A stretch of 59,587 bases of DNA, the filler included, from Stramenopiles sp. TOSAG23-6 (Eukaryota): NCBI GenBank assembly GCA_900128565.1. It is 2 parts of 2 records of this genome, joined end to end, with 100 filler letters (N's around TTAATTAATTAA, not from the genome) between each part and the next. Parts side by side here need not be neighbours in the genome. Positions count along the whole stretch, not along the records: positions 1 to 29,767 come from LT635968.1; positions 29,868 to 59,587 come from LT635969.1. One strand, written 5' to 3'. Position numbers and translations under genes: made by a program. The number at the start of each line of letters is the position of its first letter. Position 1 is the stretch's first letter. Positions 11,201 through 35,173 of the stretch are shown here, in pieces. The notes beneath the pieces are model-generated. The model had not been told where the DNA came from and ran no database searches. It was given only the letters and a program-made list of their open reading frames with translations.

Positions 11201-14200
11201 TAAGTGCATTTGGAGAAGAATATTCAGACGGGGATCTATTGAAATTAGCTGAATTTAATATCGCCGAAACAAACTTTGAGAAAGACAAAGATTCAGATAC
11301 TAGAAGTTTATCAAGAACATCATCGCCTACAAATTTGGATAATTCTAAGCCCAATGAAAATGTCGATCTGGCATCTAAGAATAGCCCAGAAGATCCAAAG
11401 TTTGGTGTTGATTTTCCAGAATTACCAGATTTTATAGATAAGAATGATGTTAACGAAATTAACTTTGAAACTGAACATGAAGACAAGAATGAACTATCAA
11501 GTAGTGGAAATTATGAATTATATACATTGAAAAATCATCCAGATGCAAACACGCGCGAATGGCATTCAATATTACGTGAAGGTGGTGATGTTCGAGCGAT
11601 GATTGCTGAAAAAGCGCGAATGGATGCAATTGCAGACGCAATTCGTTTAGCATCGGAAGCCGATCAAAATATATTCGCAGGAGTTGACGATGACATGGTA
11701 AGCTCGGGTGAAGGGAAACTGTACAACTTCAAGACAGAGTTTCGCGCCGAAGGTGATTATCGTACAATGCAGCTATTAAATCTAGAAAACACTAATAAAA
11801 ACAAGAATGAGAATGAGTTTGAACGATTGTTAGGTAATCATAAGGCCAATGATAATAGTGACATTTCTTATGACTCTAGCTCTAACGACAGTATGGCAAG
11901 TTCCGGTGTTGAAAAACCATTCTGTATCCGTGATGGAGTACATTTGAATGGTGATAGTGATGAAGAAAATGTATATGGCACTGTCATGAGCGATTCATCT
12001 GCGTACGACAGTAATTGGTCTGGTCCTGGTGCAATTTCAGATAGCAGTGGTTTGTTAGATTTATTTGAGCTAAAGGATGGTTTATCGCCATTTGCTGAAG
12101 GTCGGTTAGCTCGGACCCAAAGACAAATCAGAAATGGAATTCTTGATGATGCGTATATACCAGGTGTATTAAATCATCCTAAACACATGCGAAGATTCGA
12201 CCCTAGACGCGTAGAAATTTTTGACCAGGAAGTTGTTTTGGCTAAATGTATTAAAGATTATGATTGGATGGTGGAGGGCGATATCGATGAAGTATTGGTG
12301 GGCACAATGGTGCTCGTTCTGGATAACAACTTTGATGCTCGTCCTGGTCCTTGCAGTCCCGATGATAAATGGATGGTACGTGATATCCACAATTCCAAAA
12401 ATGTTGGCACAGCCTTCGGTCATTGTTTCGAAGTAATTTCCAAGAGACCATTAGGAAAGTCACGAATGGGTTGCTTACAAAAGTTTTACGCAGAATATGC
12501 TCCAAGTCGTAAAGGTTTATTAACAGTAGAAAATACTCTATTGCGATATCAAAACAAGGAACAAAAGCTCTTCAACTTATTACATAAAAAGTATGGCAGT
12601 GCCCCAGAGGAATTAATTCTACCAATGTTCGAAGCTCCAAAATCTGAGGATTTATCAATTGGTATGCTTGTTGAAGTCAATGTCAGAGGTAAAGGCAAAT
12701 GGTTCAAAGGATTTATTCGTCGTCGTAGAGGTCGCCAACGATTTGATGTAGAACTAAAGGATGGCGATCCAGACTTAATTTTATATGCTAGCGACCTATA
12801 TAGTGCCGGAGAAGACGATGGAAGTTTATCTGATGAAACTCTTAATCAATCTGAAGATTCCGACGAATGGACTTCTGTAGGAACCATAGATGACGATGAA
12901 GTGAAGGTGATTGAACAAAAAGAAGTAAAGGTACCAAAATTTCTTCAATTAGCGAAACAAACTCAAAATAGAACCCCGACTAAACCAATTCTTGTGAAAA
13001 CAAAAGTGTCAAAGAGAACAAAGGACAACCTTTTTAGACATAAAATTGCATCACTATGTTGGGATGGAGGTGAAAAGGTCGTTGTCGGTACACTCAGTGG
13101 ACAAGTAAGAGAAGTATGGGTCAACGACGATAAAAAGACAATCGATGTTAATAAGAATCCAGTTGTACATGGTCAATGGCAATGGGATTGGGTCAGAAGG
13201 ATAACTACGGACAGCTATGATATGCATAAGCCTATTGCAATGTGCTTTCGTAATCGTCATAATGAGTTCTTTACAGTCGACGGGGCTTTACTTTCTGTCT
13301 ATACGTTTGAACATCATTTGGCTCCATTAAAAAGGAATAAAAGAAGAAAAGCAGTTTACATGAGACAGAATGGAAAACTACGATTATCTGAGTCATGTCG
13401 TTCTACCCCTGACGGAAAGCTTGTAGCTGTTGGGCACACAGGAATATTTGGTATTGGATTCTCAACATGCACACTATATGACACAGATACTTTGAAACCA
13501 ATGTACTTCTTTCGTGACACTGAAAGAAGCAACCTTAGCACAACGACTTGTATTCAGTTCAGTAAAGACGGGAAATTTATAGCAACTGGTATGAGCAATG
13601 GATATGTACACATCAGGCAAGTTGAAGAATTTTATGAAAACAAAACAAAACGGTTCGTACTAAAATGTTCAATAAATATGTCAGAAAATCACGAACGAAT
13701 TGAGCAAATGGATTGGTCCACTTCAAATGCTAACTTAAGAGCTACAGACAAACTAGGGAATTTAAGATATGCTAATTTGAAAAATTTAGAAACTGCAGAT
13801 TTTATATGGCAGAAAGACACTCTTGCAATTGTAGCTCAATCTACATCGTGGGTGACATTCACCTGTAGGGATTCATTTTGTAACATAAAACGACATAGTA
13901 CAAACAGACTAACATTTGACGGAAATCATATACCAACGACAGGTTGCAAAACAATGAAACATAATAAGAGACAATATATTGCTGCTGGTGCACCAGGTGG
14001 ATCATTGCTGTTTATGAGCTATCCTTGGATCAGGGGGAGAGCAAATTATAAATATCATTTACATACTTCAGGAATTCGTCAAATGGAATTTTCTTTTGAT
14101 GGCAAATCTCTTGCTGTTTGCGGAGGAATAGATAGAGCTATTTCGTTATGGTCAAAAGAGTATGTGGAACAAATGTTTGAGTGGGGAATTTCATTAGATT

Positions 14201-17200
14201 TTACACAATACTTATTAGAAAAAGATGCGTGGTATATGAGCCCAGAAGAAAATTCATTCGTCTCTAAATCAATGTTAGTAGAAGATGGAAAATTGCGAAA
14301 AGCAGGAATTCCTTTAAACATGTCTTTAGTATGGTGTTATTCCCCAGTTTGCTCCGATGTTTTCTACACACAAAATCATGAAGTTGTATTCTATTCAGAA
14401 TCAGTCGCTGTGGTATACAACAAGAAAAGACACCAACAGAAGTTTTTCGAGAAACATATGGCTGATATTTCGTGCATTGCTCGATCTAACAAAGGTGATG
14501 TTGTGGCCACAGGCGACGTGTATCATACCCCAATGATTCGTGTATGGAATAGCATGACAATGCAAGAGTCATGCGCATTAAAGTTAGATACAAAAGAAGG
14601 CGTAGATTGCATCGCCTTCAGTAAGGACGATTTGTCGTTGGCTGTAATCGGAAAAGATGCGGAGCATACATTAAGTATCTTCCGATGTAATGGCCCACAC
14701 TGGGGATTTGGAGGAAATCTTTTAGCATCACACGGAATTGGTCCCGCACCATGTATATCTGTTAGCTTTACTCCATGGTATGATTTGCCAATTATGACTG
14801 TTTCGTTAGACACCGTTAAGTTCTGGCAATTACGAGGGCGGAATCTGCGTTGGATATTTTCTATAGATGAAGATGAGGAAAACTTGAAAAAGCAACAAGA
14901 AGTAGATATTGAAATTGGTGATGGTCTTCCTACAAATATTCGATGGTTAGGAATGAATGACAATAATGACCTAGAAGTTGTCGATGGTGTACAAAAAATG
15001 TACAGATCTGACGGAAATGAACGTGCTGTAACACCTATCACCATCCTACGCACAGCAACTGAAGATAATAACACCAAAACTCAGGACGGCGAAACTGATG
15101 ATACAAGTCCAGAATACATTGCAGCGCAAATGAGAGACACATGCACACTGTTATTTGGTAAAGTTAATTCAGAAACAAAAAACGATGAAAGTAAAAACAA
15201 AGCACACAGGATTAACTCTGAAAAGAAAAAAAACGAATACGACTTTATACCTCTTCAAGGAGCTCAGTTGTTACCTATGACGAATAATGATTCTAAGTCA
15301 AGTGAAGATGACAATAAAAAGGGCGCGAAGAAGTCACGTCGTAAATCTTTATCAGGCGCCATAGTCCACGGGATTGATAGTGAAATATTAAACCCATTTG
15401 CATCTATTCAAGGGAAACATCGGAGTTCGATTGAAAAATTAGCAAAATCGAAAAAACAAAATTGGATAGCACCACCTGGATTAGGTGTCTGCTTGATTAG
15501 TAATCTTCGTTACATGGAAAATGAGATTGATGGGCTAATTTCTCTGAAAGGTCTTTCTAGTAATGTAGCTGGTGGAGTTGGCTCATTTGAGATAGGTTTT
15601 GGTGAAAGCTTATCAAGCGATAAAGAATATAAATTACAAAACGATAAAGATTCTTCAGCATCTTCTAGTTCAGATGAAATGGAATATGTAAATGAAGAAA
15701 ATAAGGATTTGGTTCTTCAACAAAGGAATGTTTTAGATACTTTGCGAAATAAAAACAAACCAGTTAGGCTTATTCAGCGAACAGACAAGCCGGGCAAGAG
15801 AAAACTAAAAATACATACTGGGCTAAGCATTGATACAGATTTAAACGAAGGATTAATTAGCCCGCCAGGGACTTTGAGTCCGTCAAGACCATCTACAAAT
15901 TCAAGCTTGGTAAGCCTACGACAGATGAGTTCTGTGTTGGAGAGTGACCGCTTTTCAAGAGACGGAAAAAAAAATAGTAGGTTCAGTTTTCAGCCAGATT
16001 CTCGAAGAAGCAGCGCTAAATCAGGAAAACGAAACAGTGGTGTACAAATGAGTTCCCCACAGTCATCTGAAGGAAGTCGGCGCCAGTCCGTTCAGTCGTC
16101 AAATAAGAGGAACAATCGTCGAATGAGTAAAGATCTCACTAATATAGGAGGAAACACATTGAAGCAAAACCTAAAGAATATAACAACTACAGCTGGGCAA
16201 ATAAATGAAAATACTTCATCAAACAGGCGGATGAGTAAGACTGGCAAGATGAGAAGATTGAGTAAAATCTCAGGTGGGCGTAGATTAAGTCAGTCAATAA
16301 AAATGAAAAATGTAAAAAGAAATACCAGAAGGTTGAGTAAAGAGTTGACTACTATGGCGAATGAAAGGCGAATGAGCAAAAAGGAAAGTACACGATATAT
16401 TCGACGCTTGAGTGAATCAGAATCAAAGCGAGTAAATTCGTTGGATAAAAATGGAATGCGAAGATTAAGCCGAGTTTGTGACTTGGGCTCTTATCAAGGA
16501 AGAAGTTCCCGTCAAAGTCACAGGCTTAGCTTTGTTAGAAAAGACTCGCGTGCGAGTAAGGCTCTGAAACGCATGAGTAGCATAAGTAACTCTTACGGCG
16601 ATGACAATGTTGTCGAGCAAGCATCCCATACTGCGGATATTCTAGACGAAGATGACACTGCAGTAGCCGCCCAGATACTGTGTATTACTCAATTTGGTGA
16701 ATTCATGATAGGTGGTGACGTAGATGGGTTTCTTGTTATATTTGAGTACGAGATCATAACAGAAAGAGTCAATGCGCATAATGATGAAATACTTTGTTTG
16801 CATTCAACTTCCATGGGCCTCGCAAGTGGCAGTACCGATGGTATAGTCAAACTTTGGAACCATCGCCTGATAATGACCCATCAGTATAATATGTATCAAA
16901 TGCCTAGTTCATGTATACGAAGTATCTTTTGGAACACCGAAGCGGATTCAATTCTGGCAGCGATGGAGGACGGTAAAGTTGTTGAGGTTACCATTCATAG
17001 TGGAACAGTTACAGAAATCATGGATGCTCACCATGATGATGTCATTATTGATTTAGCGACACACCCAGTAAACCCCCTGCTTGTGAGTATCGGTGCTGAT
17101 AGACGGATGAACATTATACATACCCAAAACCAAGGAATCATAAGAAAAACACAATTTGATACAGACCCAACTGCAGTGTGTTGGTTCCCCAAAAGCAATT

Positions 17201-18012
17201 TTATTGCCGTTGGCTTCAAAGAGGAATTTAGTTCTCAAAAAGCAACGAACCCATGTTGGGCAATATGTAGTGGAGTAAATCTTTCCATTTGTTTTGTCGG
17301 GGTGCAGACAAAAGAGACTATAACGTCACTATGTATATCACCCGATGAAAAAACTCTCGTTGCAATGACCAAAAAAAATAAGATTGTTTTATATTCAACA
17401 AGTCCTCAGAATAATTCATTGGTATCGAACATAACATGTAATTTGATCAGATGTATCGATGTTACGACAGTCTTACCTATCCATCATATGGGATTCCGAC
17501 CGGACGGAAGAATTCTACAATTTTTTCGTGCCCACGAATCAGGGAAGGCTCGAATACAAAGTGTTATTGACCTAGATGAAACGGATGAAGCGTTAAAAGA
17601 GTTTGATGCTGATAGCGGTGCTGCTTCAGAAGATTGGAGAGGAGTCTGGATTAGTATCGAAGCAGCAAATGACGCATTGCTGGTATTTACACGACCATCG
17701 CATCAAAATCCATCTTATACAAAACTTGTTGACGCAAGCCATGGGACTGATAAAGAATTGAACTTTAGAGGATTCAACATTGATCGTTATAAATGTAAAG
17801 CAAAGCTTGGATTTCCCCATGCTTCCGTCGCAAAGTATGATAGCTCAGGCAATGTTCTTTTCATTACAAATATGAATCGCCCGTCTTTGATGCAATATAG
17901 ACTGAAGGTTGTAGATTTAAGAACACAAAATAAAAAATCTGCTGGCCCAAAACGAGTTGAAATGCGAACTAGTATTGTGTATGGAGCTGAACGAGATGGT
18001 GTCAAATGGTAA
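5242..18012 (+). CDS. ~4220-aa EML5/6-like HELP-WD40 protein with N-terminal EF-hand region; exons 5242-6931 and 7040-18012
   Basis: MGQ start, DTDGDDTIDLLEF EF-hand, three HELP-like motifs (LKLSWIYGYDG, LELSWVYGFD, MSLVWCYSP) followed by WD40 repeats; intron removal joins KPTA|SDIEK in frame. Confidence 0.85.
6932..7039 (+). other. Non-canonical intron GT-AT (108 nt)
   Basis: GCAT|GTATGT...TGTACCTAAC...AAAATACAT|CT; the next three downstream AGs would each create a stop codon. Confidence 0.88.
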
Positions 18013-22292: not shown

Positions 22293-23235
22293 ATGTCAGA
22301 ATTTAGTTCAATTGAACAGGCATTAGCTGCTCTTCGCCGCGGCGAATGTATTATTGTTTTAGACGACGATAATCGAGAAAATGAGGGTGATTTGATTATC
22401 CCTGCAGATAATATCACGCCGGAAGTGATTAGTTTTATGTGTCGAACGTGTACTGGAATAATTTGTTGTGCCACAACAGAACAGCGAGTTTCAGAACTAA
22501 ACTTGCCTCTGATGGTTCCAAAGAATACAGAGAAACATGGATGTTCTTTCACAGTATCTGTAGATTATAGACATGGAACTACAACTGGAGTTTCGTCTCA
22601 TGACCGTGCGTTGACGATAAAACAACTTGCACCTGGCTCAGGAAGTGTGAGCAGTGATTTTAATAGACCGGGTCATGTATTTCCACTTCAAGCCCGTGAA
22701 GGCGGTGTATTGCAACGTGCCGGTCACACAGAAGCGTCCGTAGATTTGGCAAAATTATCAGGATACTCTCCTGCAGGCTGCATTTGTGAAATAATGAATC
22801 CAGATGGAACCATGGCTAGACTTCCGGAGTTAAGATTATTTTCGAAAAAACACAGTCTTCATATGATTACCATAGCAGATCTTATGACATATCGACTCAC
22901 TCACGAAAGTTTTTTGAGTTCCAATTTATTGAAAAATAATTCTGTTGTAAAAACACCATTTGGTTTGTTTAATAAAAGTGTTTTCCGATTCACAGTTGAT
23001 GGATCGGAACATCAAGTTCTAACAACAACTAGAAATACTGAACAACTATTCTCAAGAGGGTTAGGGTTATCTGAAAAAATTGGTGTGGTATTTGTTCACG
23101 TGGAAAGTATTGATGACAACTGTTTGTTTGGCACAAGCAATGACAAAGAAAATGACCCTACCTCTCGTTCTAGTCTCTTGCGTGGTATATCTGACGTTGC
23201 TAAATATTCTTCTAAAAGTGTTGGCGTTGTTATTC
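22293..23235 (+). CDS. ribB: 3,4-dihydroxy-2-butanone-4-phosphate synthase plus start of a degenerate GTP cyclohydrolase II-like domain; 3' part missing
   Basis: DDDNRENEGD, FTVSVD, TTGVSSHDRA, RPGHVFPL, GVLQRAGHTEA, ICEIMNPDGTMAR. Confidence 0.92.
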
Positions 23236-23338
23236 ATACGTTTTCATCATTCATTTCAATTATTTTTTTTTGTTTTTTGTAATGAAATTTTGTACCTAAC
23301 GATTTAATTTTTTTTTTTGCGTCATTTTCACAATATAT
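23236..23338 (+). other. Non-canonical intron AT-AT (103 nt), apparently chimeric ribB/PAN2
   Basis: ATACGTTTT...TGTACCTAAC...CACAATATAT; flanking exons belong to different genes and phases do not match. Confidence 0.65.
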
Positions 23339-26300
23339 GCGTGTTGGTTCTGCTGTTGCAACTTTACAAAATCATTCTGGAAGAGTCAATATGGTAGCTA
23401 GTGAATTCAATACTCTTGTGACATGTGGTTCTTCATTACTTGCCGAACGAACGTCACAACAAATTTGGATAAATGAAAATGTATGTTTTATATGAATTTC
23501 TAATTTAAATTTTTTTTTCATACGAAATTTTGTACCTAACAAATTTAAGTTTTTTTTTTTGAAATATTTTTTCACAATATATGGAAAGGAAGAAGTTAAA
23601 AAAAGACGTTTAGGACCGGACCCAATGATGAATGTGTATGATGTGCGAAGAATTCCACCGACTCTTCAAAAACCAGTAAATTTTAATACCATGGGCATGC
23701 CCTCTAATTTACGTGTGAAACCGTGTGTGCTGGAATTTCTTCCAGGGCATAGACTTCAATTAGTGGCTGCTTCAATATCTGGCATTGTACGTACTTTTGA
23801 TTTAAGTGGTCATTCATTTTCTCCTGGGGCCGATTCACAACTTGCAATGGCTCCAGGCGCACATGTTTCTAGTATTAGTGTATCAAGTTCTGGTAATGTT
23901 ATTGCTTTGGGAGATACTGCTGGTGTTGTGCATTTATGTACAACTACTCCAGAAGATTCTCAAAAACGACGAACAGATGGTAGTGTTTGTATACCAAGCT
24001 TAAATCCTACTGTATGGAGAGTTGATGATCCTCCTCCAATGTGTAGAAAACCGTTGTTATCTATTGATCCATCCGATTGTGCACCAGCTGGGAAATATGC
24101 AATGTTACCTCAATTAGGAGAGAGGATGCGTATCAAAGAAAATCCTCCTCTATTACTCTCTACGCCTTTACGATGGATGGAAAATCAAAGCATGTATGTT
24201 TCCAAAATTGAATGTTTGTACCTACATTTTTTTTTTTACGATTTCAAAAACAAATTGTACCAAACAAATTTCTTTTTTACTAAAAAAAATTTTTTTTTTT
24301 TTTCAAAAACAAATTGTACCTAACAAATTGTTTTTTTACTAAAAAAAAATATTATTTCACGATACATTCAACAGCAACCTGCTCGAGTTATTTCAAAGGC
24401 CGTATTATCTGCTGTCCTTAAAAGTCAACCTGGCGACTATATTAGTTTTGTTTCAAATCAAACATTTGGTTTCAAAAAGGGAACTTTGTTGTTTGGAAAT
24501 ACAGATGTAATCACAGTATCTGACCCCCGTGGTGTAACAAGTACGGAAGATGATGGTGATACTGATGACGTCGATGCAGATTTGCCTCGTGTTGAGTTGC
24601 CTGAAAATTATAAACCTGTTGTTATCGATATGAGAGCTTTGAGGTTTGGATTAGATACTTTTGATTTCGGTTCGTTTAATGGAACGAAATTTGCTGGACT
24701 TGAAAATGGTTTCTCGAATGATTATGTTTGTTCCGAGTTACAAATGTTATATCATATATCACCTATTCGGTCTTTGTTATTAAATCATCTTTGCGCTGAT
24801 CCTACCTGTATTTCATGTGAAACGGCGTTTTTATTTGATATGTTACTTCAGGCTCAAGGTGTATGTTTTATATGAATTTCTAATTTTATTTTTTTTTCAT
24901 ACGAAATTTCGTACCTAACGATTTTTTTTTGAAATATTTGAAATATTTTTTCACAATACGTGGCCCTCCAAAATCGAAAAGTTGCCAACCGACGAATTTT
25001 CTCCGCGCATTACGATTGGTCCCAGAAGCCGCAGCTCTTGGTCTATTGGAAACAAAGGGTAGTCCTTCACGTTTACCTCTTGGAATGCGAATTGAGGCTT
25101 TACATGAATTCTTACTCGAAAAATTTGTGAAGGAATGTGGTGATAACTCAAGAGTTCAAGATTTAATGGGAATCAAATTAAGATCTTTTTGTCAATGTTC
25201 TGAAGGTCACGGTAGTTCCCGTGATACTATTGCGTTAAACACACGACTTCAATATCCAAAATTACCATTGAAGTCAAATATCCCAAGTTTTAAGGATATT
25301 TTGAAACGTTCTTTGGTGAGAAAATTAAAGCAACCTAGAGCATGGTGTAATATATGTAAAAAGTATTCTGCAACGAAGCAAAATATTTGGCCATATTCTT
25401 TACCTGTATTTCTTAGTTTTACTGCGAATGTTAATGTTGGTGAAAAAGCTCGTAGGTTCTCTACCGATACCAAAGATGTTTTACCTGCTGAAAAGTTTTG
25501 GAGCGAGGGAGGTAAAGAATGGTTACCTTCATATATAGCTGTATCTGTCGATGCAGAGGATTCATTTTCTGCCAAAACAAAATGCGATGCTGTTAATTCT
25601 CATGCATCTGAAAACGTACTCATTGCTGAAGGATCATCCTTACAAGAAATCGTTGCATCGCTTGACGAGTTGGATGGACGTGGTAAACCTCCTTTTGTTT
25701 TCGCAAAGCCTAAAGCCGTGTATTTTTTACATACTGAATGTTCAAATGTTTTTTTTGTGTGTTGCATCCAACTGATTCAAATTTTGTAACATTTCTAACA
25801 ATTTTTTATAAACCAAAAAAAAATATTTTTTCACAATACATCGATCTGCTACGTACTCCTGTCAAGGGTAATATCTCTACTGGTAATTTTCCTAAAACGC
25901 CTATTAGTACAAATGACCAGAATAATTCGTGTCAGAGCAGCTGTAATAAAAATGACCAGAATAATTCGTGTCAGAGCAGCTGTAATAATTCTCGTCGTAT
26001 TTATCAGTTACAATCTGTGATATCTCATGTGAATCCTTGTCCTGGGTCTACAAGCACAAGTAGTGGGCATCTGATACTGCATACTCTTTCTAATGATAGA
26101 TGGTTGTTATTTAATGATTTTAAAATTATTGAAGAACCTTTATCAAAAGTTATTGACTTCACTTCACCATGGCGCACAGCATCTGTGGTTGTATACAAAG
26201 CAGTATCAGATGTTGATTCCGAAATGGCTACTGTATGGAAGCAGAGTAAACAAAATATGGTTGCCGCATCTATTTCACCTATCAAGCCACAATTATTTGG

Positions 26301-26438
26301 CGATAAAGATGGTCCTCTTATGGGTGAATATTCACCGACAACGTATCATAAGTCATTACGTCGTAAAGATAGTGGAGCAATGAATACTCCAATTGGAAAA
26401 TTAGCCTTAAGTTTCTTATCTAATCCTGAAATGGACAT
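23339..26438 (+). CDS. PAN2: PAN2 deadenylase, internal portion (end of WD40 and pseudo-USP domain); 5 exons; N-terminus and nuclease domain absent
   Basis: HSG...TLVTCG, DPMMNVYDVR, FGLDTFDFGSFNGTKFAGLEN, HLC...CISCE..FLFDML, SCQPTNFLRAL...EAAALGL, WLLFNDF. Confidence 0.9.
23481..23582 (+). other. Non-canonical intron GT-AT (102 nt)
   Basis: AAT|GTATGT...CACAATATAT|GGA, in frame. Confidence 0.85.
24194..24367 (+). other. Non-canonical intron GT-AT (174 nt) with internal tandem duplication
   Basis: GCAT|GTATGT...CACGATACAT|T, in frame (QSI|QQQP). Confidence 0.85.
24861..24961 (+). other. Non-canonical intron GT-GT (101 nt)
   Basis: GGT|GTATGT...CACAATACGT|GGC joins QAQG|GPPKSKSCQ. Confidence 0.82.
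25720..25841 (+). other. Non-canonical intron GT-AT (122 nt), diverged copy
   Basis: GT|GTATTT...TTCTAAC...CACAATACAT|C, in frame. Confidence 0.75.
25911..25988 (+). repeat. 39-bp in-frame tandem duplication in PAN2
   Basis: NDQNNSCQSSCN encoded twice. Confidence 0.9.
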
Positions 26439-26547
26439 GTATGTTTTATTTTTTTTTTTAAACAAAAAAATCGATTTTTTTTTCATACGAAATTTCGTAC
26501 CTAACGATTTTTTTAGATTTTTTTTTAAATATTTTTCCAAAATTTAT
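26439..26547 (+). other. Non-canonical intron GT-AT (109 nt) joining a PAN2 exon to an ILVBL exon
   Basis: CAT|GTATGT...CCAAAATTTAT|TCTTGCA; in frame but the exons come from different gene families. Confidence 0.7.
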
Positions 26548-28530
26548 TCTTGCAGGTACAGTCTGTGACTTTCGTATGAATTATGGTCGGTGTCTCAAAA
26601 GGAAATCACGAATTATTTCAGTAAATCGTTCAAAAGTTGATATACGTTTTATTATATTTTTTTTTAAATTTGAATTTTTTGTATGAATTTATTTTTTTCA
26701 AAAAATTTTGTACCTAACAAATTTTCAAAATTTTTTTTCAAATATTTTTCCAAAATACATTTAACTTTGAATTCTGATATGTTCTGGAAGCCTACTATAA
26801 CATCTCAATCTGATCCAGCCATGCATGTTTTTTTTTTTTCAAATTTGAATTTTTTTTTTATAGAAAATTTTGTACCTAACAAATTAAAAATTATTTTTTG
26901 AAATATTTTTTCACAATACATGTTTTTTATTTCTCTTGCCAAAATTCTTTGTGATTCTCAAGACAAACTTTCTACGATATGGGGTGTACGTTTTAATTTT
27001 TTTTTTGTAATTTTTTTTTCGTACGATATTTCGTACCTAACGATTTTTTACGTTTTAATTTTTTTTTTTGTAATTTTTTTTTCGTACGATATGTCGTACC
27101 TAACGATTTTTTTTTTTTTTGTAAAATTCGTGTTTTTTCACAATACATGTAAGTATACCTCCATCGAATCATCAAACTTCGATACAACATCCAAAAACAG
27201 AACACGCTGAGAGGAGATCAAAATGGGCTCAACAATTAAAGCAATCACAAAGAGAAAGAACGTTTTCACATTATGAATTTTTTACCTAAATTTTTTTTTT
27301 TTGGTTTCATACGAAATTTTGTACCTAACAAATTTCGAATTTAATTTTTTTTACAATATATGTGAAGCAAAGACTCGAAAAAAGGCGAATGAAATATCTA
27401 TCGGTCGTGGAAGTGCTAAAGGAGAAAGTCTCATCAATCCACTTGATTTATGTATGTTTTATTTTTTTTTGTACGAAATTTTGTACCTAACAATTTTTTT
27501 TAGAGTTTTTTATGTATGTTTTTTTTTTTTTTTAAAATTTGAAATTGAATTTTTTTTTTTTTTTTTTTATACAAATTTTGTACCTAACAAATTTAAGTTT
27601 TTTTTTTGAAATTTTTTTTTCAAAATACATGTTATCATTTAGATGCTTTATTACCTGACAATAGTATTCTTGTTGCAGATGGTGGTGATTTTGTCGGTTG
27701 TGCAGCGAATACAATGAGCCCTCGTGGTCCTCTCCGATGGCTTGATCCTGGTGCATTTGGGACTCTTGGCGTTGGTGGTGGTTTTGCACTAGCTGCAAAA
27801 TTATGTAAACCAGACGCTGAAGTATGGATTATGTATGTTTTATTTTTTTTTTCGGTAAAAAAAAAAATCGATTTTTTTTTTTTTTTCGTACGAAATTTTG
27901 TACCTAACAAATTTTTCTAAAATTTTTTTTGAAATATTTTTCCAAAATACATATGGGGAGATGGAAGTTCTGGCTATTCATTGGCCGAGTATGACACCTA
28001 CAAACGTCATAAAACACCCATTGGAGGTCTTATCGGAAATGATGCTTGTTGGATGTTTTATTTTTTTTGAATTTTTTTTAACTACATTTTTTTTTTTTTG
28101 AAAATTTTGTAGCTAACAATTTTTTTTTTTTTTTTTGAAATATTTTTCCAAAATACATGGACTCAAATTGAACGTGAACAAATACCAATACTAGATAGTG
28201 ACGTGGCATGTCCTCTTGACTATTGTGCGTACGAAAACGTTGCTAAAGGGTATGGTGGTAATGGTATTGAATGTCGAAAACCAGATGAGAAGGAAATACG
28301 TCAAGTGATCAGTTTGTATGTTTTAATTTTTTTTTTCAATTTTTTTGTCTAAATTTTTTTTTTGTAGTAAATTTTGTACCTAACAATTTTTTTTTTTTTT
28401 GGTAAAAAAATTTTTTTGAAATATTTTTCCAAAATACATGGCACAAAAGAAAATGGCATCAGGCGAACCAATGGTAGTGAATGCCTGGATTGGGAAAACA
28501 AATTTTAGAGAAGGTTCGATTTCTGTATAG
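26548..28530 (+). CDS. ILVBL: Acetolactate synthase-like/2-hydroxyacyl-CoA lyase (TPP enzyme), C-terminal half; 9 exons
   Basis: [95 protein letters not shown]; continuous only after removing 8 introns. Confidence 0.93.
26642..26760 (+). other. Non-canonical intron AT-AT (119 nt)
   Basis: GAT|ATACGT...AAAATACAT|TTA joins SKVD|LTLNSD. Confidence 0.82.
26823..26921 (+). other. Non-canonical intron GC-AT (99 nt)
   Basis: CAT|GCATGT...CACAATACAT|G joins SDPAM|FF. Confidence 0.82.
26986..27148 (+). other. Non-canonical intron GT-AT (163 nt) with ~62-nt internal tandem duplication
   Basis: GGT|GTACGT; two GTACGATAT.TCGTACCTAAC units; CAATACAT|GTA. Confidence 0.82.
27258..27361 (+). other. Non-canonical intron GA-AT (104 nt)
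   Basis: AA|GAACGTTTT...CAATATAT|GT, in frame ([11 protein letters not shown]). Confidence 0.75.
27452..27630 (+). other. Non-canonical composite intron GT-AT (179 nt)
   Basis: Joins INPLDLC|YHLD; second AT|GTATGT at 27514 and two branch motifs. Confidence 0.85.
27833..27952 (+). other. Non-canonical intron GT-AT (120 nt)
   Basis: Joins EVWII|WGDG (TPP motif). Confidence 0.9.
28051..28158 (+). other. Non-canonical intron GG-AT (108 nt)
   Basis: TT|GGATGT...AAAATACAT|GG restores GNDACWTQI. Confidence 0.85.
28316..28439 (+). other. Non-canonical intron GT-AT (124 nt)
   Basis: In frame (VISL|AQKK); 5' half nearly identical to intron 6932-7039. Confidence 0.88.
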
Positions 28531-28787
28531 ATCTTGAAAAATGTATGAAATGTACTTTCATGAAATATTGATTCCAAATGAAATTTTTTTAAAAAAAATC
28601 AACAAAAATCTTTAATTTTTATATTGTAGAGAGTATCATGAAAAATAAAAAATTGTGCTCTAGTCACACTTGTCACTTGATGACTTTTTCGTTTTATAGT
28701 AGATTTTTTTCTTTTTTGTACGAAATTTTCTTTTTGAAATTTTTTTTTTTGAAAATTTTTTTTTTGAAAAATTTCTTTCTGTTTTTT

Positions 28788-29690
28788 CTATCCAAGACTA
28801 AATACTCTGGCAATTCCATTATGAGTCTCAACTTGACATCTTCCATACGGCACATGTTCACCATCTAACGAGATATAACCAGTTTTATTTTGATCCAGAG
28901 GCTCTAATCGAAATGCGTCACATTCCAATGTAGTATGAAAAAATATTTCAAAACAAAAAACAAAAAATTGTTAGGTATACAATTTTGTATACAAAAAAAA
29001 AAAAAAAAAAAAAATTGGGTTAGGGTTAGGGTTATGGTTCAAAAAATAAAATGTACACAAAATTACACCTGGGAAATTTATATGTGTTCCTTCTTCTAAA
29101 GGTCCTGCAAACATTCTAAGCATGCTACATCTAGAAATCTTTTGAGCAATGAGAATTTTCCATTTTCCACCAGATAGCTTTGTACCAGGACATTGATGCA
29201 TGTATTGTTTGAAAAATATTTTTTTTTTTTTGTGTATAAAAATTTGTTAGGTACGAAATTTCGTACGAAATGTTTTGAAAAAAAAAAAAAAAAAAAAAAT
29301 TCAAAATTGAAATTGAAAAAAAATAAATAAATTCGAAATTGAAAAAAAAAAACATACATGTCATATGCTGCATGTGAAGTATTTGTTGCCCAAAATAGTT
29401 GAAATTTCCCCTCAATCATCTTCCATGTTTCTCCTTTGGATTTTTTTTGTAAAAGATTTTGGTGAAGTGATGGAAGAGTATATATTGTGGAACAATAAAT
29501 TCGAAATTGAAAAAAAACCCGTTAGGTACAAACTTTCGTACGAAAAAAAAAAATCGATTTTTTTTGTAAAAAAAAAAAAATAAAACATACATGAATAAGT
29601 GTGCCAGTAGGGTTAGTGGTAGACTTTGAATCACTGGGTACCCGGTAAAACAATCGACCTTCATATATCCGAAGATTTAAAATTCGAAGT
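28788..29690 (-). CDS. Sphingosine kinase/DAGK-family lipid kinase, last 4 exons
   Basis: LRILNLRIYEGRLFY, WKMIEGKF, SHAAYDM..CP, AFRLEP...GYISLDGE.VPYG..QVE. Confidence 0.85.
28928..29056 (-). other. Non-canonical intron GT-AT (129 nt) containing TTAGGG repeats
   Basis: Joins GVILL|ECDAFRLEP. Confidence 0.85.
29200..29357 (-). other. Non-canonical intron GT-AT (158 nt)
   Basis: CAT|GTATGT...CAATACAT|G; perfect GTACGAAATTTCGTAC palindrome at 29251-29266. Confidence 0.87.
29480..29590 (-). other. Non-canonical intron GT-AT (111 nt)
   Basis: CAT|GTATGT...CACAATATAT|ACT, in frame. Confidence 0.82.
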
Positions 29691-29767
29691 ATACATTTTA
29701 GAAAAATATTTCAAAAAAAATTTTAGAAAAAATTGTTAGGTACAAAATTTTTTTACCAAAAAAAAAA
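29691..29767 (-). other. Non-canonical intron, 3' part, truncated by gap; ends TAT
   Basis: TGTACCTAAC...GAAATATTTTTCTAAAATGTAT|. Confidence 0.75.
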
Positions 29768-29867
29768 NNNNNNNNNNNNNNNNNNNNNNNNNNNNNNNNN
29801 NNNNNNNNNNNTTAATTAATTAANNNNNNNNNNNNNNNNNNNNNNNNNNNNNNNNNNNNNNNNNNNN
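29768..29867. other. Artificial 100-nt contig spacer
   Basis: Symmetric N runs flanking TTAATTAATTAA (stops in all frames). Confidence 0.95.
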
Positions 29868-29921
29868 GTACGAAATTTTGTACCTAACGATTTTTTTTTG
29901 AAATATTTTTCCAAAATACAT
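29868..29921 (+). other. Non-canonical intron, 3' part, truncated by gap; ends CAT
   Basis: GTACGAAATTTTGTACCTAAC...CCAAAATACAT|. Confidence 0.8.
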
Positions 29922-30385
29922 ACCAAAAGACGGAAAGTTTGGATGTTGAAAATATGTGGTTTTGTGAACAATGTCAAAAACGAACTTTGGCTGAGAAAAC
30001 AATTGGATTTTGGGATATTTCTGAAATATTTATCATTTGTTTAAAACGCTTCCAAATTTCTTTTGATGGGTCATCTCGAATGATTTCTAGGAGTAAAATT
30101 TCTGGTCTAGTTGACTATCCTCTGTGTGGTTTTGATCTATCACCATATATTTTATCCAAAAATAGAGAAAATTGTATCTATGATCTATTCGCCGTATGCA
30201 ACCATTCAGGTAATTTAGATGGAGGTCACTATACATCATTTGCATGCAACTTCAAGACAGGTAAATGGTATGAATTTAATGATAGCAGTGTCCGAGAAAT
30301 ATTGGATCCAAATAATGAAATTATTACTGAAAAAGCCTACGTTCTTATGTACAGACGCCGAAGGGAAAAAAAAATTATAAATTAA
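29922..30385 (+). CDS. Ubiquitin-specific protease (C19), last exon
   Basis: WFCEQC, LKRF, YDLFAVCNHSG...GGHYT, WYEFNDS, AYVLMYRR. Confidence 0.92.
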
Positions 30386-30557
30386 TCCGCATTCATAATT
30401 TTTTTTGTTAGGTACAAAATTTGGTACAAACAAATGAATTCAAAATACGCTGTTACGAATTAATAAATGAATTTTAATGAACTCAAGTGATCATTTTATT
30501 GTTACTATTTTTTTTTTATAGTAGTAAATTTTCAAATTTTGTACCAAAAAAACGAAT

Positions 30558-31691
30558 TTAATTTTTTTTTCCAGTACCTTTTCTTGCTAATCCGTATATT
30601 GCCCAATTTCTCTGAATATATCGAATGGATCCAACCGTACTGTTTGTAGTTGTTGGCACAATGTCATACCCAATATTCTTAAACACATTTAGTTCTGGTT
30701 GTATCACTATTTCAATATCATTTCTTTCATTTTGAGATTCGTAAAGGTCATTTGAATATTTATTTGAATAATTCTTTGAATATTTATCGTCTAATGCTAC
30801 ATCTATTTCATTCACAAAGCCCGAAGATTTCAGCATTGTAAGATCTGCATTTAGGTCTATAGCGTCATGTATTTTGGAAAAATATTTCAAAAAAAAATCT
30901 AAAAAAAATGTTAGGTACAAAATTTCGTACGAAAAAATAAATTCGATTTTTTGTTTAAAAAAAAAAATAAAACGTACATACGCCGTGAGAAAAACAGGAC
31001 AAAAAGTTTTTTTTTTGAATATACAATCTAGACTTTCTTTCCAGCCCTTTGTATGTGCTGGATGTGCTAAACCTGGGTTTAACAGGAAAACAGCATCTGC
31101 TTCTTCTTTTTGAAATATTTCATGATATACACCTGTGTGATACTCAACGCTGACGCCTCTTCCAGTGCTTTCATCTTCTTGCAATGACTTAGTACCTATT
31201 GGAACTTGCGGTCCTATAACACGTATATGTAAAGGCTGATTTGGCTTACATAATGAAAGGCGTAACTCGCGCCATACCCAAAGTGGGGCTAGTGCTTCCG
31301 CGCGAGCCCCTACGATATCTATTCGTATAACTGTGTGGTGCTTTGTATTAACCACACGAGGAAAGATGTTAGCAATGGTCAGTGAATATGTTAAATAGGC
31401 AGACAGCTGACGGCCCATTGAACTTTCCGAAGTAACTGAGAAGCCACGACGTCGAAAGAAATTGTCCCAAGAAGGTGTTTCAGACACGAGTTCTTGTTTG
31501 GACAGGGACGCGACAGGAATCTTCATTTGCTTGGCTCGGAAATTTGCATCTTCTGCAAAAATGGAAGAGGCAAGTGCCACCGAAATATCCTCATGATTAT
31601 TTACTAAAGCTGAAACACCTGGAACAGAGGATTTTGATAGGGTTGATATCAATCTTCTCGCGGTATGTGATGCACTTGATAGCATGATCAA
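30558..31691 (-). CDS. MSS51 C-terminal-domain-like protein, probably mitochondrial; 2 exons
   Basis: LTYSLTI, IDIVGARAE, VIGPQV, GVYHE, LNPGL, NVF pattern; transit-like N-terminus. Confidence 0.7.
   Translation of the reverse strand: MIMLSSASHTARRLISTLSKSSVPGVSALVNNHEDISVALASSIFAEDANFRAKQMKIPVASLSKQELVSETPSWDNFFRRRGFSVTSESSMGRQLSAYLTYSLTIANIFPRVVNTKHHTVIRIDIVGARAEALAPLWVWRELRLSLCKPNQPLHIRVIGPQVPIGTKSLQEDESTGRGVSVEYHTGVYHEIFQKEEADAVFLLNPGLAHPAHTKGWKESLDCIFKKKTFCPVFLTAYVRFIFFFKQKIEFIFSYEILYLTFFLDFFLKYFSKIHDAIDLNADLTMLKSSGFVNEIDVALDDKYSKNYSNKYSNDLYESQNERNDIEIVIQPELNVFKNIGYDIVPTTTNSTVGSIRYIQRNWAIYGLARKGTGKKN
30867..30977 (-). other. Non-canonical intron GT-AT (111 nt, 3n and stop-free)
   Basis: TAT|GTACGT...AAAATACAT|GAC; hidden inside the computed ORF. 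Confidence 0.85.
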
Positions 31692-31993
31692 TACTTCATA
31701 TTCGTTTTGTTTGCTCGTTGTTGTTACTACTATATTTAAGTACCTATAATTATAGCCTAGAGGTGGTGACGTAAACTAAATTTGTACTGACAGACACCAG
31801 CAGCCGACCGGCTAATAAATACCGGTACCCGCCCCACTCGAAGCTACTTGACTGCGACTGGTGTGGAGTATTGAAAAGGTATTCGCTTTCTTATTACATT
31901 TTTTCAGTCAATATTTTCCTCTGTTGAGCAGTAAAATTTTCATACAAATGGTACAATAAAATAGGAATACAACAATTAAAATCAATAAATACT

Positions 31994-32305
31994 TTAATCA
32001 TCATCATTTCGAGTTGAATTTCTATCCCTATCAAATGTAACACGCTTTTTACCCCAGCGGCCTTCAAACACTGCAATTATACCATAATCATTTCCTGTAT
32101 GTTCCTCGAAACGTCGTTTGCCTTGAAGTATAGCGAGGCAGCAAAATACACCTGCCGCAGTTACGCCTAAACTCATTGTATCACCACTGCTACTGCCCTT
32201 GTTACTACTGCTATTACTCAAATATTTTTGCTTGAGGTGGTGTTGTGCAGGTTGCCGTAAAATCCACGGAGTGCATACCCTTCGATACACAAACATACTC
32301 ACCAT
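31994..32305 (-). CDS. Small hypothetical protein, possible mitochondrial single-pass membrane protein
   Basis: ATG start, Arg/Ser-rich N-terminus, one hydrophobic segment, fills an intergenic interval. Confidence 0.5.
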   Translation of the reverse strand: MVSMFVYRRVCTPWILRQPAQHHLKQKYLSNSSSNKGSSSGDTMSLGVTAAGVFCCLAILQGKRRFEEHTGNDYGIIAVFEGRWGKKRVTFDRDRNSTRNDDD

Positions 32306-32641
32306 ATATCTCTCACTTGTGATCTCGTCGACTTGCTTTGTACAATATGATAGCTAGCTAGGTCTTACTCTAGTAGCCACTGACACAAACATCGAAATGA
32401 CATGGAAAGTTTGGAAACGCGAAACAACGTGGCAATAAAAACACACGTGTCACGGTGACCGGTGAAGCGAAAAAATCGAAAACAATCAATCAATAATTTC
32501 ATTTGAAACAAAAAAGCGAAAAATAATTCCACAGAACGATAAAGAAACAATTTCAGCTTTTATCAGTATTCTAAATTGATAAATAAATGAATGCTGAATG
32601 AGATGCGTTTGCCGCAATTAAATTAGTTGATATAGTAGTAA

Positions 32642-35173
32642 ATGTTTGGATATTACGATAAAGATTGGACCGTGGTCACCGATGCTTCAGTTTTCCTCGT
32701 AGTCGCTTGTGCAATAATCAACTGTCTTCGTTGGATAAAGCGTGGAACTATTCATCCTAATAGAAATCGCAAATCACAAAGAGAGCATAATAGTCTATTG
32801 CTACGATATATTTTTCCATTTTTATGCTTTAAGGGTGCTGATTGGCTACAAGGTGCATATTTCTATGAAGTTTATGCTTCCAAAAACCTAAGTGATAGTG
32901 AAATTGCTATATTGTTTTTATATGGATTTGGTGCATCTGCTATTCTTGGACCTGTTGTTGGTGTGTGTGTAGACATTTTGGGTCGGAAAAACGGATGTAT
33001 CGCATACTGCTTTTTTTCTATATTTGCCGCTTTCAGTACACATTTTCAATCGTATACAGTTCTTGTAATTGGGAGATTCTGTGGTGGAACAGCCTCCTCG
33101 ATCCTTCACTCGGCTCCAGAGGCTTGGCTTGTTGCAGAGCATAGTAAAGCTGTGCGAAACAAAAAGGTTGCAACAGATGGTTCAGCGTTGCAATCGGCAT
33201 TAACGTGGTCGCATTTTGGTAATGGAGTTGTCGCTATTGTAGCAGGGCACGTTTTCATCATAAATTTCAAATTTATTTATTTTTACAATGAAAATTCTGT
33301 ACCTAACAAATTTCGAATGTAACATTTTATTTCACAACACATGCAAATTTCTTCAAGTGCAGAAATGCATTTTGGACCTTCTGGTCCTTTTCTTGCCTCC
33401 GTTGTTGTCTCTTTGTTAGGCGCGACGATTGCAACATGCTTATGGGAAGAGAATTATGTATATTTTTATCATTCATTTTTTAACTAAATATTTTTTATAG
33501 GAAATTTTGTACCTAACAATTTTTTTTTACGAAAAAAAAAAAAAAATATATTTTTTACAATTCATGGAAAGAACGTTGATATAGATCAAACTATACATAT
33601 CGTCGGTGAACTTAGTACCACATCCAACACATCCAAATATAAAATAACTGAGACGAAAGATAAACTGAAACAATCTTCACCTCAGCAAAATAATACTCAT
33701 TGCTCTCGTATGTGTTCATCATGAATTTTTTTTTTTTTGGTTTCGTACGAAATTTTGTACTTAAGATTATTTTTTTTGAAATACTTTTTTCACAATACAT
33801 GTGATGTCCTCCAAAAAATTACTTTCAGAACTCTAGCTGTACTTTCTGAAGGAATCGAAAAGATATCAATTACAGTTGACCTTGTGTTAAATGATTCACA
33901 CATATTCGCAGTTGGTGTAGTTCAAGCCTTTACTGAAGCATCGATGTATATATGTTTTCATCATTCAGTTCAAATAGTTTCTTTTGGTACAAAATTTTGT
34001 ACCTTTAAATTTTTTTTTTTTAAAGTGTTTTTTTTATATACGTTTTCATTATTGATTTCGATTTTTTTATACCAATTTCTTTAGCAAACTTCAAAAATAT
34101 ATTTCACTATAAAATATGTTTTATTTTTTTTCAATTTCGAATTTTTTTTAGTACGAAATTTCGTACCTAACAAATTTTACAAAAAAAAATATTTTCTCAC
34201 TATATATATGTTTGTTGTAATGTGGGGATCAGCTGTGAAAAAAGTGTCTAATTACGAGTCTACAATGAAAGAGACTACTCCAGTGAAAATTCCATTTGGT
34301 ACGTTTTCATTTGAATTTCAAATTTATTTTTTTTTCATAGAAAATTCTGTACCTAACAAATTTGAAACTTGAAACGTAAAATGTATTTTTTGTCCAACAT
34401 GTGATTTATTCTCGTGTTACATGCTTTCTTGTATGCTTGGTTCAAGTATTCTGGCATTGCTTTGCGCTCGTGTTTCTACGACCAAGACAGGTATAAGTGG
34501 GAAAACATTTAATAATGAGAGTAATGTCAAATTAATTCTCAAAGTGATATGTTCACCAATGTTCTATTGTACGAAAAAACTCTCTAACATATTTGCTTGT
34601 AGTATTTTTTGTGATAGATTATTAGAATGGTTATTACTAATTTCGCTTATAGTGGCGAGCATTGTACTGATGCTTAGTGCAGCTATTGTTAATAGCACAC
34701 AACCGGGTGCCTTCCCTTATATCACCGAAATCTTTAATAATATACCTGGCACAAATCTAAGGAATGCACGAATAGTCGGATCAAGTACAGGAAGAACGGG
34801 TCATCTTTTGATATGTTTCTTTATTTTTGAGGGAACAATTGGTTTATTTTGGCCTGCCATTAGCATGTTAAGAGCAAAATATCTTCCCAATACTTGTCGA
34901 TCAGCAGCCATGACTTTATTTCGTGTTCCGCTCAATATAATGGTTATGGGTGTGTCCATTGGTACACGATATCTCGGTACTGATGGCGCATTAGCCTGTG
35001 CAGCAATTACTTCATCATTTGGTGTCATAGCACAACTTTATCTTCTATTTTTAACTATATTTCATAAATCAAGAGAGGAATCCCGAGTGATAGTAAAGAA
35101 TGTGAATGATGGTAGCAAAATGAAAAAGAATATACATGGTACTACTGCAACAAAAACAATCAAGCAAGAGTAA
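32642..35173 (+). CDS. MFSD5: MFS molybdate-anion transporter (MFSD5/MOT2 family); 6 exons
   Basis: ADWLQGAYFY, GRKNGC, GRFCGG.ASS.L, GNGVVAIVAG, WEENYG, EASMY.FV..W, IPFG..FS..M...MLGS, FRVPLN. Confidence 0.9.
33247..33342 (+). other. Non-canonical intron GC-AT (96 nt)
   Basis: GG|GCACGT...CAACACAT|G keeps VAIVAG. Confidence 0.85.
33458..33565 (+). other. Non-canonical intron GT-AT (108 nt)
   Basis: Restores WEENY|G. Confidence 0.88.
33708..33800 (+). other. Non-canonical intron GT-AT (93 nt)
   Basis: TC|GTATGT...CACAATACAT|GT, in frame; branch motif variant TACTTAAG. Confidence 0.82.
33950..34207 (+). other. Non-canonical composite intron AT-AT (258 nt)
   Basis: Restores EASMY|MFVVMW; several internal donor-like and branch-like motifs. 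Confidence 0.75.
34299..34400 (+). other. Non-canonical intron GT-AT (102 nt)
   Basis: TG|GTACGT...CCAACAT|GT keeps IPFG. Confidence 0.87.

Follow-up and report, generated by a model that had tools for sequence, protein, structure and literature searches.

A 59.6-kb window from one genome, that of Stramenopiles sp. TOSAG23-6 (the window being the whole stretch of DNA analyzed here and the scope of every count below), carries many copies of one short, AT-rich, introner-type repeat. We provide evidence, drawn from reading frames and protein homology, that this family probably serves as introns in the genes of a marine protist and that these introns are probably spliced at GT...AT. The curated set comprises 29 copies of ~90 to 260 nt, spread across eukaryotic DNA whose base composition over the whole window is ~36% GC.

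When a copy is removed from the G or A that opens its G[T]AYGTTTT start to the T that closes its ...YAT end, uninterrupted proteins resembling their homologs are obtained. Left in place and read from the upstream frame, 16 of the 17 copies tested introduce an in-frame stop codon and the 17th shifts the frame, so these copies must be removed if protein is to be produced. Removal of all 17 yields open frames that align without gaps to homologs at conserved motifs. The exons between the copies keep their order and their conserved residues, 219 of 314 aligned residues being identical to P0003, an ortholog of 2-hydroxyacyl-CoA lyase 2 (HACL2), and 423 of 811 to the PAN2 ortholog P0131. These results argue against the elements never being removed, with the genes as pseudogenes or the repeats as artifacts of amplification or assembly. 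We give that explanation almost no credence, even though two copies lie at frame-breaking joins of unrelated genes and the window consists of contigs joined through a spacer.

The first of these joins (23236-23338) links an open reading frame (ORF) for DHBP synthase to PAN2 from residue 233 of P0131. The second (26439-26547) links PAN2, which runs to residue 1070 of the 1,286 in P0131 and ends short of the exonuclease domain, to HACL2, which begins at residue 447 of the 768 in P0003. Both are probably mis-joins through the intron repeat that make the contig a mosaic, with either half remaining valid as a donor or an acceptor. An earlier interpretation of this DNA without database searches, here the sequence-only reading, had listed an intron at 23236; a family copy does lie there, but with its 103 nt it breaks the frame. 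A join at 6932 was also considered chimeric and was ruled out, a second EML propeller following it.

The repeat family and its copies

The sequence-only reading, headed with positions 23236 to 34400, counted 29 clear donors. That number holds for the window as a whole, but only 23 of the curated introns (16 with a GT donor) lie within those coordinates and six more lie elsewhere. Excluded from the 29 are four nested copies (27048, 27514, 34038, and 34114), pieces at contig ends (3-54, 29693-29767, and 29868-29911), a 5'-truncated copy (4423-4475), and two non-coding fragments (30405-30442 and 30502-30564).

The box GTACCTAAC, allowing at most one mismatch, occurs 38 times in the window against an expectation of 7.09, a count that none of 100 shuffles reached, and an nhmmer profile built from 16 copies returned 42 matches in the 59.6 kb. 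Profile positions 1 to 107 cover the intron from its opening base to its closing one; repeat and intron share their boundaries. Copies are located in at least 10 unrelated genes, in sense orientation and within coding sequence. Their pairwise identity has a median of 0.67 and reaches 0.83 to 0.91 over the full length in the best pairs, and the interiors of the top six copy pairs are 0.81 to 0.92 identical. Judged by these comparisons, the copies are true repeats, beyond mere shared signals. The family layout runs from a 5' GTAYGTTTT through an internal ...ACGAAATTTTGTACCTAAC and a T-rich stretch to a 3' ...AAATATTTTTCMAAATAYAT.

Some introns are compound. One holds an internal tandem duplication (26986-27148), and in two others (27452-27630 and 33950-34207) the end of one copy directly adjoins the start of the next, giving ...AT/ATAYG and ...AT/GTATG (the slash marks the junction); fresh insertions seem to fall at the very ends of existing copies. 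The intron that the sequence-only reading recognized at 33950 does belong to the family, but its acceptor must lie between 34207 and 34208 if the frame is to be kept. The 5'-truncated copy at 4423-4475, on the minus strand of a glycosyltransferase-like gene, ends in ACGT, and there the ORF also reads through; a GT-ending reading gives His at the junction and an AT..AC reading gives Arg. A telomere-like CCCTAA, repeated three times, lies at 28990-29020 on the minus strand, inside the intron at 28928-29056. No consistent fixed-length target-site duplication was found across the curated copies, and a fixed 3-nt target duplication supplying positions +1 to +3 was rejected, only one of 27 downstream exons starting with GTA. 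Candidate routes of spread are a transposon that makes no duplication and reverse splicing.

The register of the cuts

We define the register as the displacement, from -3 to +3, of both intron ends moved together such that the frame is kept; register -2 corresponds to AT-AC, -1 to TG-CA, and 0 to GN...AT. Registers were computed at 17 junctions, where only the junction residues discriminate. The comparison set consisted of the HACL2 ortholog P0003, the PAN2 ortholog P0131, 119 HACL2 homologs, and nine MFS_5 transporter homologs.

The lower bound comes from five junctions. At 28051, a shift to register -2 brings a TGA into frame, and registers -1 and -2 lose a Gly at both 33247 and 34299 that is present in all eight aligned homologs (the ninth has a gap). 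The sequence-only reading had pointed to this TGA and to the loss of Gly from VAIVAG (33247) and IPFG (34299), and all of these changes are seen in the computed registers. Register -2 also alters residues shared with P0003 at 26986 and 28316. TGA is not a sense codon here, since two uninterrupted ORFs of 3,667 and 7,085 codons contain no stop codon. The upper bound comes from 26642, 27833, and 24194, where register +1 replaces conserved Leu or Ile residues. At 28316 an upper bound is set from register +2 on. The sequence-only reading had left register +1 open; the replacements at the other three junctions speak against it.

The registers allowed are -2 to 0 at 26642, -3 to 0 at 27833, -3 to 0 at 24194, -1 to +3 at 28051, 0 to +3 at 33247, and 0 to +2 at 34299. 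Because these sets intersect only at 0, register 0 is the only uniform register. When all introns are shifted together, register 0 likewise gives the top alignment score against all four HACL2 homologs scored; its product contains a 10-residue stretch identical to P0003, as well as a 19-residue stretch and IPFG/D. On protein homology, GN...AT is supported and AT-AC and TG-CA are rejected, as the sequence-only reading had proposed. The junction at 28928 was ruled out as discriminating, register -2 being synonymous there, and a canonical AG acceptor at 26556 was ruled out as well, the TTGCAG at that point being coding sequence whose ILAG is matched in homologs.

AT-AC introns, of either U12 or U2 type, would be cut before ATGTATG and after ...ATAC. 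AT precedes GTAYG and the intron ends in ACAT in 19 of the 29 copies, so AT...AC can be drawn on paper for these AT-flanked copies without any change to the mRNA. It is contradicted for the 10 copies that have no AT flank. Beyond the TGA at 28051 and the invariant Gly lost at 33247 and 34299, such cuts replace Gly with Asp in the WG at 26986 and Leu with Met at 28316. The U12 donor RTATCCTT, whose absence the sequence-only reading had noted, is found at none of the 29 intron starts and occurs five times in the window against 4.48 expected. U12 introns have their branch site ~10 to 15 nt from the 3' end, whereas the branch-like box of this family lies 33 to 56 nt from it. AT-AC splicing of the family is, in our judgment, very improbable.

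A further alternative dispenses with a uniform register and places the cuts at each copy's own direct repeats or by pairing of its ends, as in euglenid-type nonconventional splicing or ciliate-like DNA excision. Microhomology of 1 to 5 nt (mean, 2.89) is present at every junction, and on the right side the match between intron start and next-exon start is slightly above that of permuted pairs (p = 0.023). In three of six non-GT donors, the opening dinucleotide repeats that of the following exon (p = 0.022), which hints, marginally, at a target-site origin of some 5' dinucleotides; a shifted cut at 33950 agrees better with the homologs; and the terminal GTAT and ATAC constitute a short, imperfect inverted repeat whose arms pair in 15 of 27 minimum-energy folds. 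On the left side, however, permuted pairs show just as much microhomology (p = 0.26). Duplexes between the ends are weak (mean, -3.7 kcal/mol versus -2.26 in shuffles; mean z, -0.89), and a hairpin defining the cuts was dropped as a candidate because of this weak pairing. Position +4 (T or C) does not covary with position -4 (A in 26 of 29). GTAYGT, the TACCTAAC box, and the T-rich tract make up the layout that a spliceosome reads, and the highly conserved borders are unlike those of euglenid nonconventional introns. Nuclear dualism is not known in stramenopiles, which counts against excision at the DNA level. Taken together, these observations make non-uniform cutting rather improbable, and a uniform GN...AT register remains the reading that we adopt.

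Splice-like signals and the variable donor

In register 0 the 29 introns begin with GT in 22 cases, AT in three (23236, 26642, and 33950), GC in two (26823 and 33247), GG in one (28051), and GA in one (27258), exactly the tally given in the sequence-only reading. They end with AT in 28 cases and GT in one (24961). Position +1 is G in 26 of 29 copies and a purine in all of them; the consensus base is kept in 25 of 29 at +2 and in 26 of 29 at +5, and A at +3, a pyrimidine at +4, and T at +6 are invariant. At the 3' end the last base is always T, an A precedes it in 28 of 29, and position -3 is always a pyrimidine, giving YAT in 28 copies and CGT in one. Exon contexts favor AT/G, and in 15 introns YAT immediately precedes the 5' site. 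The TACCTAAC box (at most one mismatch) is present in 26 of 29 introns, 33 to 56 nt from the 3' end with a median of 43. GTAYGT is the yeast 5' splice site consensus, and the box is one base removed from the yeast TACTAAC. Between the box and the end that is used lie a median of two other YAT and five other AT, and the AT dinucleotide alone therefore cannot define the 3' site. The layout of these introns appears to be spliceosomal in all but the last base, with YAT reading as a YAG whose G has become T.

A conventional GT..AG intron at 34491-34652 interrupts the same MFS_5 gene that contains five AT-ending family introns, and AG ends are therefore still in use. It ranks first among all in-frame G[TC]..A[GT] candidates (summed score, 4,722 versus 4,349), and its removal gives a gap-free alignment to eight MFS_5 homologs. 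It is no more than 0.60 identical to the family, and the TTGTACGAAAAAACTCTCTAAC in its interior recalls the family core.

Several points weigh against a uniform GT...AT family. In 19 of the 29 introns the upstream exon ends in A(-2) T(-1), so that GT-AT and AT-AC yield the same mRNA, and the register given to these 19 AT-flanked introns, like the argument from intersecting sets, presupposes the same cut in every copy. What speaks against register +1 is a set of conservative changes (Leu to Ile and Ile to Met). At 33950, register 0 yields Met where seven of eight aligned homologs have Ile and one has Leu, and only TG..TG gives Ile. Because the copies share ancestry, neither the conservation of their signals nor the threefold depletion of AG within them (23 versus 75.8 ± 7.2 in shuffles) is independent evidence, and the depletion is weak evidence. 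Lastly, two of the 29 introns are frame-breaking joins, which makes the assembly unreliable near these repeats.

We propose that the family would be removed by the major (U2-type) spliceosome. This machinery would recognize GTAYGT as a 5' site resembling that of yeast; the TACCTAAC box, ~43 nt upstream, as the location of the branch site; the T-rich tract; and a 3' site of YAT instead of YAG. It would also handle conventional GT...AG introns such as the one in the MFS_5 gene. Variation in the first dinucleotide would reflect a real tolerance at +1 and +2. Position +1, always a purine, would be able to face the terminal U, and contact between this purine and U(-1), as G.U or A-U, may thus be retained. 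Since +1 is a purine and the last base is T in all 29 introns, a contact between first and last nucleotide that has changed accounts for the data no less well than one that has been lost.

The sequence-only reading had favored the lost contact. In its mechanism, loss of the 3' G abolishes the G(+1):G(-1) contact, the first dinucleotide drifts, and the donor is chosen by the U6-pairing positions +3 to +6, which were said to be much better kept than +1 and +2. Non-GT donors do number seven of 29, with no variation at +3 or +6 and only pyrimidines at +4, and drift at +1 and +2 seems to be tolerated in intact copies. The idea that non-GT donors merely mark the oldest copies was rejected, as these copies are not the most diverged (Mann-Whitney p = 0.37). 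The claimed difference in conservation was not borne out, however: deviations number seven of 58 at +1 and +2 versus three of 87 at +3, +5, and +6 (Fisher p = 0.089). Positions +7 to +9, for which the model has no need, are equally well kept (five of 87; p = 0.22). Position +5 is kept no better than +1, four nested 5' ends that are presumably unused as splice sites keep AYGTTTT, and no pyrimidine occurs at +1, an observation in favor of a purine(+1):U(-1) contact that has been retained. We consider this mechanism unlikely. As the introns are copies of one repeat, conservation from +3 onward would be explained mostly by the shared descent of young copies and does not prove a U6-based shift; in so young a repeat family, selection is not required to produce the pattern.

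More tentatively, an uncultured marine stramenopile lineage may have come to use YAT as its main 3' splice site via one introner family, with purine(+1):U(-1) replacing G:G and GT-AG introns being kept; we regard this wider scenario as possible without favoring it. If it is true, altered readers of the 3' site are predicted, e.g., U2AF1-like or step-2 factors. A uniform AT-ending family beside AG introns in one gene would isolate one variable, the last intron base, and would make both 3'-site recognition and the contact between first and last nucleotides directly testable.

Known systems, gene models, and neighboring features

The GT-AG rule is nearly universal, and its large-scale exceptions, in Fritillaria, Amoebophrya, and euglenozoans, are natural experiments on splice-site evolution. 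A GT...AT introner-type family in a protist would be of real interest if RNA data agree. The closest known case is that of the non-AG U2-type introns of Fritillaria, a genus of larvacean tunicates, in which AT is reported as the most frequent 3' ending (44% in F. pellucida and 34% in F. borealis) and YAY closes the intron and often also precedes the 5' site (PMC13326754). The same report implicates duplicated U2AF and changed m6A of small nuclear RNA (snRNA), and links the introns to introner transposons with weak splice sites. Shared features are the missing 3' AG (YAT closes 28 and precedes 15 of our 29 introns), a U-rich tract that is kept, and canonical GT-AG introns, described as a minority there and seen once here. 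As reported, the main Fritillaria classes are AG/AC and AG/AT, whereas here 22 of 29 donors are GT and none is AG, within a strong GTAYGT; Fritillaria has many diverse classes, and here one uniform family dominates, in a protist and not an animal. Gene content (DHBP synthase) and the EukProt label discussed below also point to a protist rather than a larvacean. If our wider scenario is correct, it would provide an independent and much cleaner parallel to Fritillaria.

The introners of the parasitic dinoflagellate Amoebophrya, where more than 60% of introns are described as non-canonical and their spread as transposon-like (PMC7789003), offer a second comparison. Both systems are marine protists with repeated intronic elements, direct repeats across exon/intron borders (3 to 5 nt there), and inverted end repeats, which here are short and imperfect. 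The Amoebophrya introns as presented in that report have no clear terminal dinucleotide signature and carry 8- to 20-nt inverted repeats that fold into hairpins, and the genomes are GC-rich (53 to 58% for some genes); here, termini are uniform (G/A ... AT), end pairing is weak, branch and T-tract signals are strong, and GC is ~36%. According to the same source, non-canonical introns make up 1 to 2% in animals, fungi, and plants, and the share of non-GT donors in this family, seven of 29, is far above that. The introners of Micromonas and Aureococcus, interpreted as DNA transposons resembling MITEs (PMC11282704 and PMC12130899), are present as hundreds to thousands of near-identical short introns. 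They resemble our family in occupying unrelated genes and in the coincidence of copy and intron limits, and their terminal inverted repeats may have a counterpart in the short, imperfect inverted repeat at the ends of our copies. They are reported to have canonical splice sites and a fixed 3-nt target-site duplication, whereas our copies have a 3' AT and show no fixed duplication. Our literature search, which covered titles, abstract openings, and passages of article text, returned no report of AT-ending introns in stramenopiles. In the text of a paper on single-cell genomes of such lineages (PMC5778133), "splice" appears zero times and "intron" twice, once in the methods for gene prediction.

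Public gene models also bear on this family. Two library proteins, P0002 and P0121, are near-identical to the HACL2 and MFS_5 genes, respectively, and their EukProt label begins with GSMAST32, which we read as a pointer to an uncultured marine stramenopile (MAST-3) lineage. P0002 (window positions 27258-28527) omits WGDGS and a 13-residue stretch, and P0121 (32642-35170) reads through the intron at 33247, errors of the kind expected from unrecognized non-AG introns. Gene sets of this lineage may be widely affected, and for such uncultured plankton a reannotation agnostic to splice sites, together with a revision of functional inferences, may be needed. If the wider scenario holds, low gene counts in single-cell assemblies, and perhaps apparent pseudogenes, would in part be artifacts of gene callers that expect AG. 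Caution is also warranted over assembly breaks and mis-joins at these repeats.

An Rfam scan of the window returned no snRNA and no other RNA family. Nine seawater metatranscriptome runs from three studies contain 0.05 to 0.13 of the words sampled, an overlap given no weight as evidence here. The 30-nt exon stretch beside two informative junctions had no matches in metagenome contigs, and the element pattern (box plus 3' part) had none in metagenome or viral contigs. Gene identities in the table were established by Pfam and homolog searches, except for that of the kinase-like gene, which was assigned by eye.

Table. Introns, genes, and other features by position in the window.
Feature	Coordinates	Strand	Ends or form	Remarks
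Intron	23236-23338	+	AT..AT, 103 nt	Joins DHBP-synthase ORF to middle of PAN2-like gene; frame broken; both flanking exons in frame 2
Intron	23481-23582	+	GT..AT	PAN2-like gene
Intron	24194-24367	+	GT..AT	PAN2-like gene; register +1 gives Met versus Ile of ortholog; +2 and +3 give stop
Intron	24861-24961	+	GT..GT	Sole copy without AT end; preceding exon flank also GT
Intron	25720-25841	+	GT..AT	5' part diverged; junction in unconserved stretch
Intron	26439-26547	+	GT..(AAA)AT	PAN2-to-HACL2 join; frame broken
Intron	26642-26760	+	AT..AT	HACL2; registers +1 to +3 give Ile versus Leu in 106/119 homologs
Intron	26823-26921	+	GC..AT	HACL2
Intron	26986-27148	+	GT..AT	Internal tandem duplication; register -2 gives Asp versus Gly of ortholog P0003
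Intron	27258-27361	+	GA..AT	Ser in registers 0 and +1, Cys in -1 and -2; homologs do not discriminate
Intron	27452-27630	+	GT..AT	Truncated copy, then full copy
Intron	27833-27952	+	GT..AT	Register +1 gives Met versus Leu in 49, Val in 36, and Ile in 34 of 119 homologs; +3 gives stop
Intron	28051-28158	+	GG..AT	Register -2 gives in-frame TGA; Trp in 116/119 homologs
Intron	28316-28439	+	GT..AT	Register -2 gives Met for Leu; +2 gives Ser for Ala (110/119 homologs); +3 gives stop
Intron	28928-29056	-	GT..AT	C-terminal part of kinase-like gene (by eye)
Intron	29200-29357	-	GT..AT	Kinase-like gene
Intron	29480-29590	-	GT..AT	Kinase-like gene
Intron	30867-30977	-	GT..AT	MSS51-like gene
Intron	33247-33342	+	GC..AT	MFS_5; registers -1 and -2 lose Gly of AGQ (8/8 aligned homologs)
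Intron	33458-33565	+	GT..AT	MFS_5
Intron	33708-33800	+	GT..AT	MFS_5; junction in unconserved stretch
Intron	33950-34207	+	AT..AT	Three abutting AT..AT copies taken as one intron; register 0 gives Met versus Ile (7) or Leu (1); only TG..TG (+3) gives Ile
Intron	34299-34400	+	GT..AT	MFS_5; registers -1 and -2 lose Gly of P[FY]G (8/8 aligned homologs)
Conventional intron	34491-34652	+	GT..AG (GTATAAGT...GCTTATAG)	MFS_5; not a family copy
DHBP-synthase ORF	22293-	+		
PAN2-like gene (UCH_1)	23340-26438	+		
HACL2/ILVBL-like gene (2-hydroxyacyl-CoA lyase 2)	26549-28527	+		Second half of gene
Kinase-like gene	~28780-29767	-		Sphingosine/diacylglycerol kinase resemblance by eye; no family search made
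Cut family copy	29693-29767	-		Beside the spacer
Artificial spacer	29768-29867	.	N...TTAATTAATTAA...N	Two N runs between two contigs
Cut family copy	29868-29911	+		Beside the spacer
USP C-terminus	29903-30382	+		
MSS51-like gene	30561-31775	-		
MFS_5 transporter gene	32642-35170	+		

Intron density is highly uneven across the window. Eight family introns fall within 321 codons of HACL2, versus none in two giant exons, one of ~3,650 codons on the plus strand (7042-18009) and one of ~7,075 codons on the minus strand (35211-56435). The second giant gene has one family intron, at 56436-56536. At 22293-23234, 114 residues without a Pfam match come after the DHBP synthase domain, which belongs to the riboflavin pathway; by eye, these residues look like a degenerate half of GTP cyclohydrolase II. 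A short telomere-like GTTAGGGTTA lies in coding sequence at 23060-23069.

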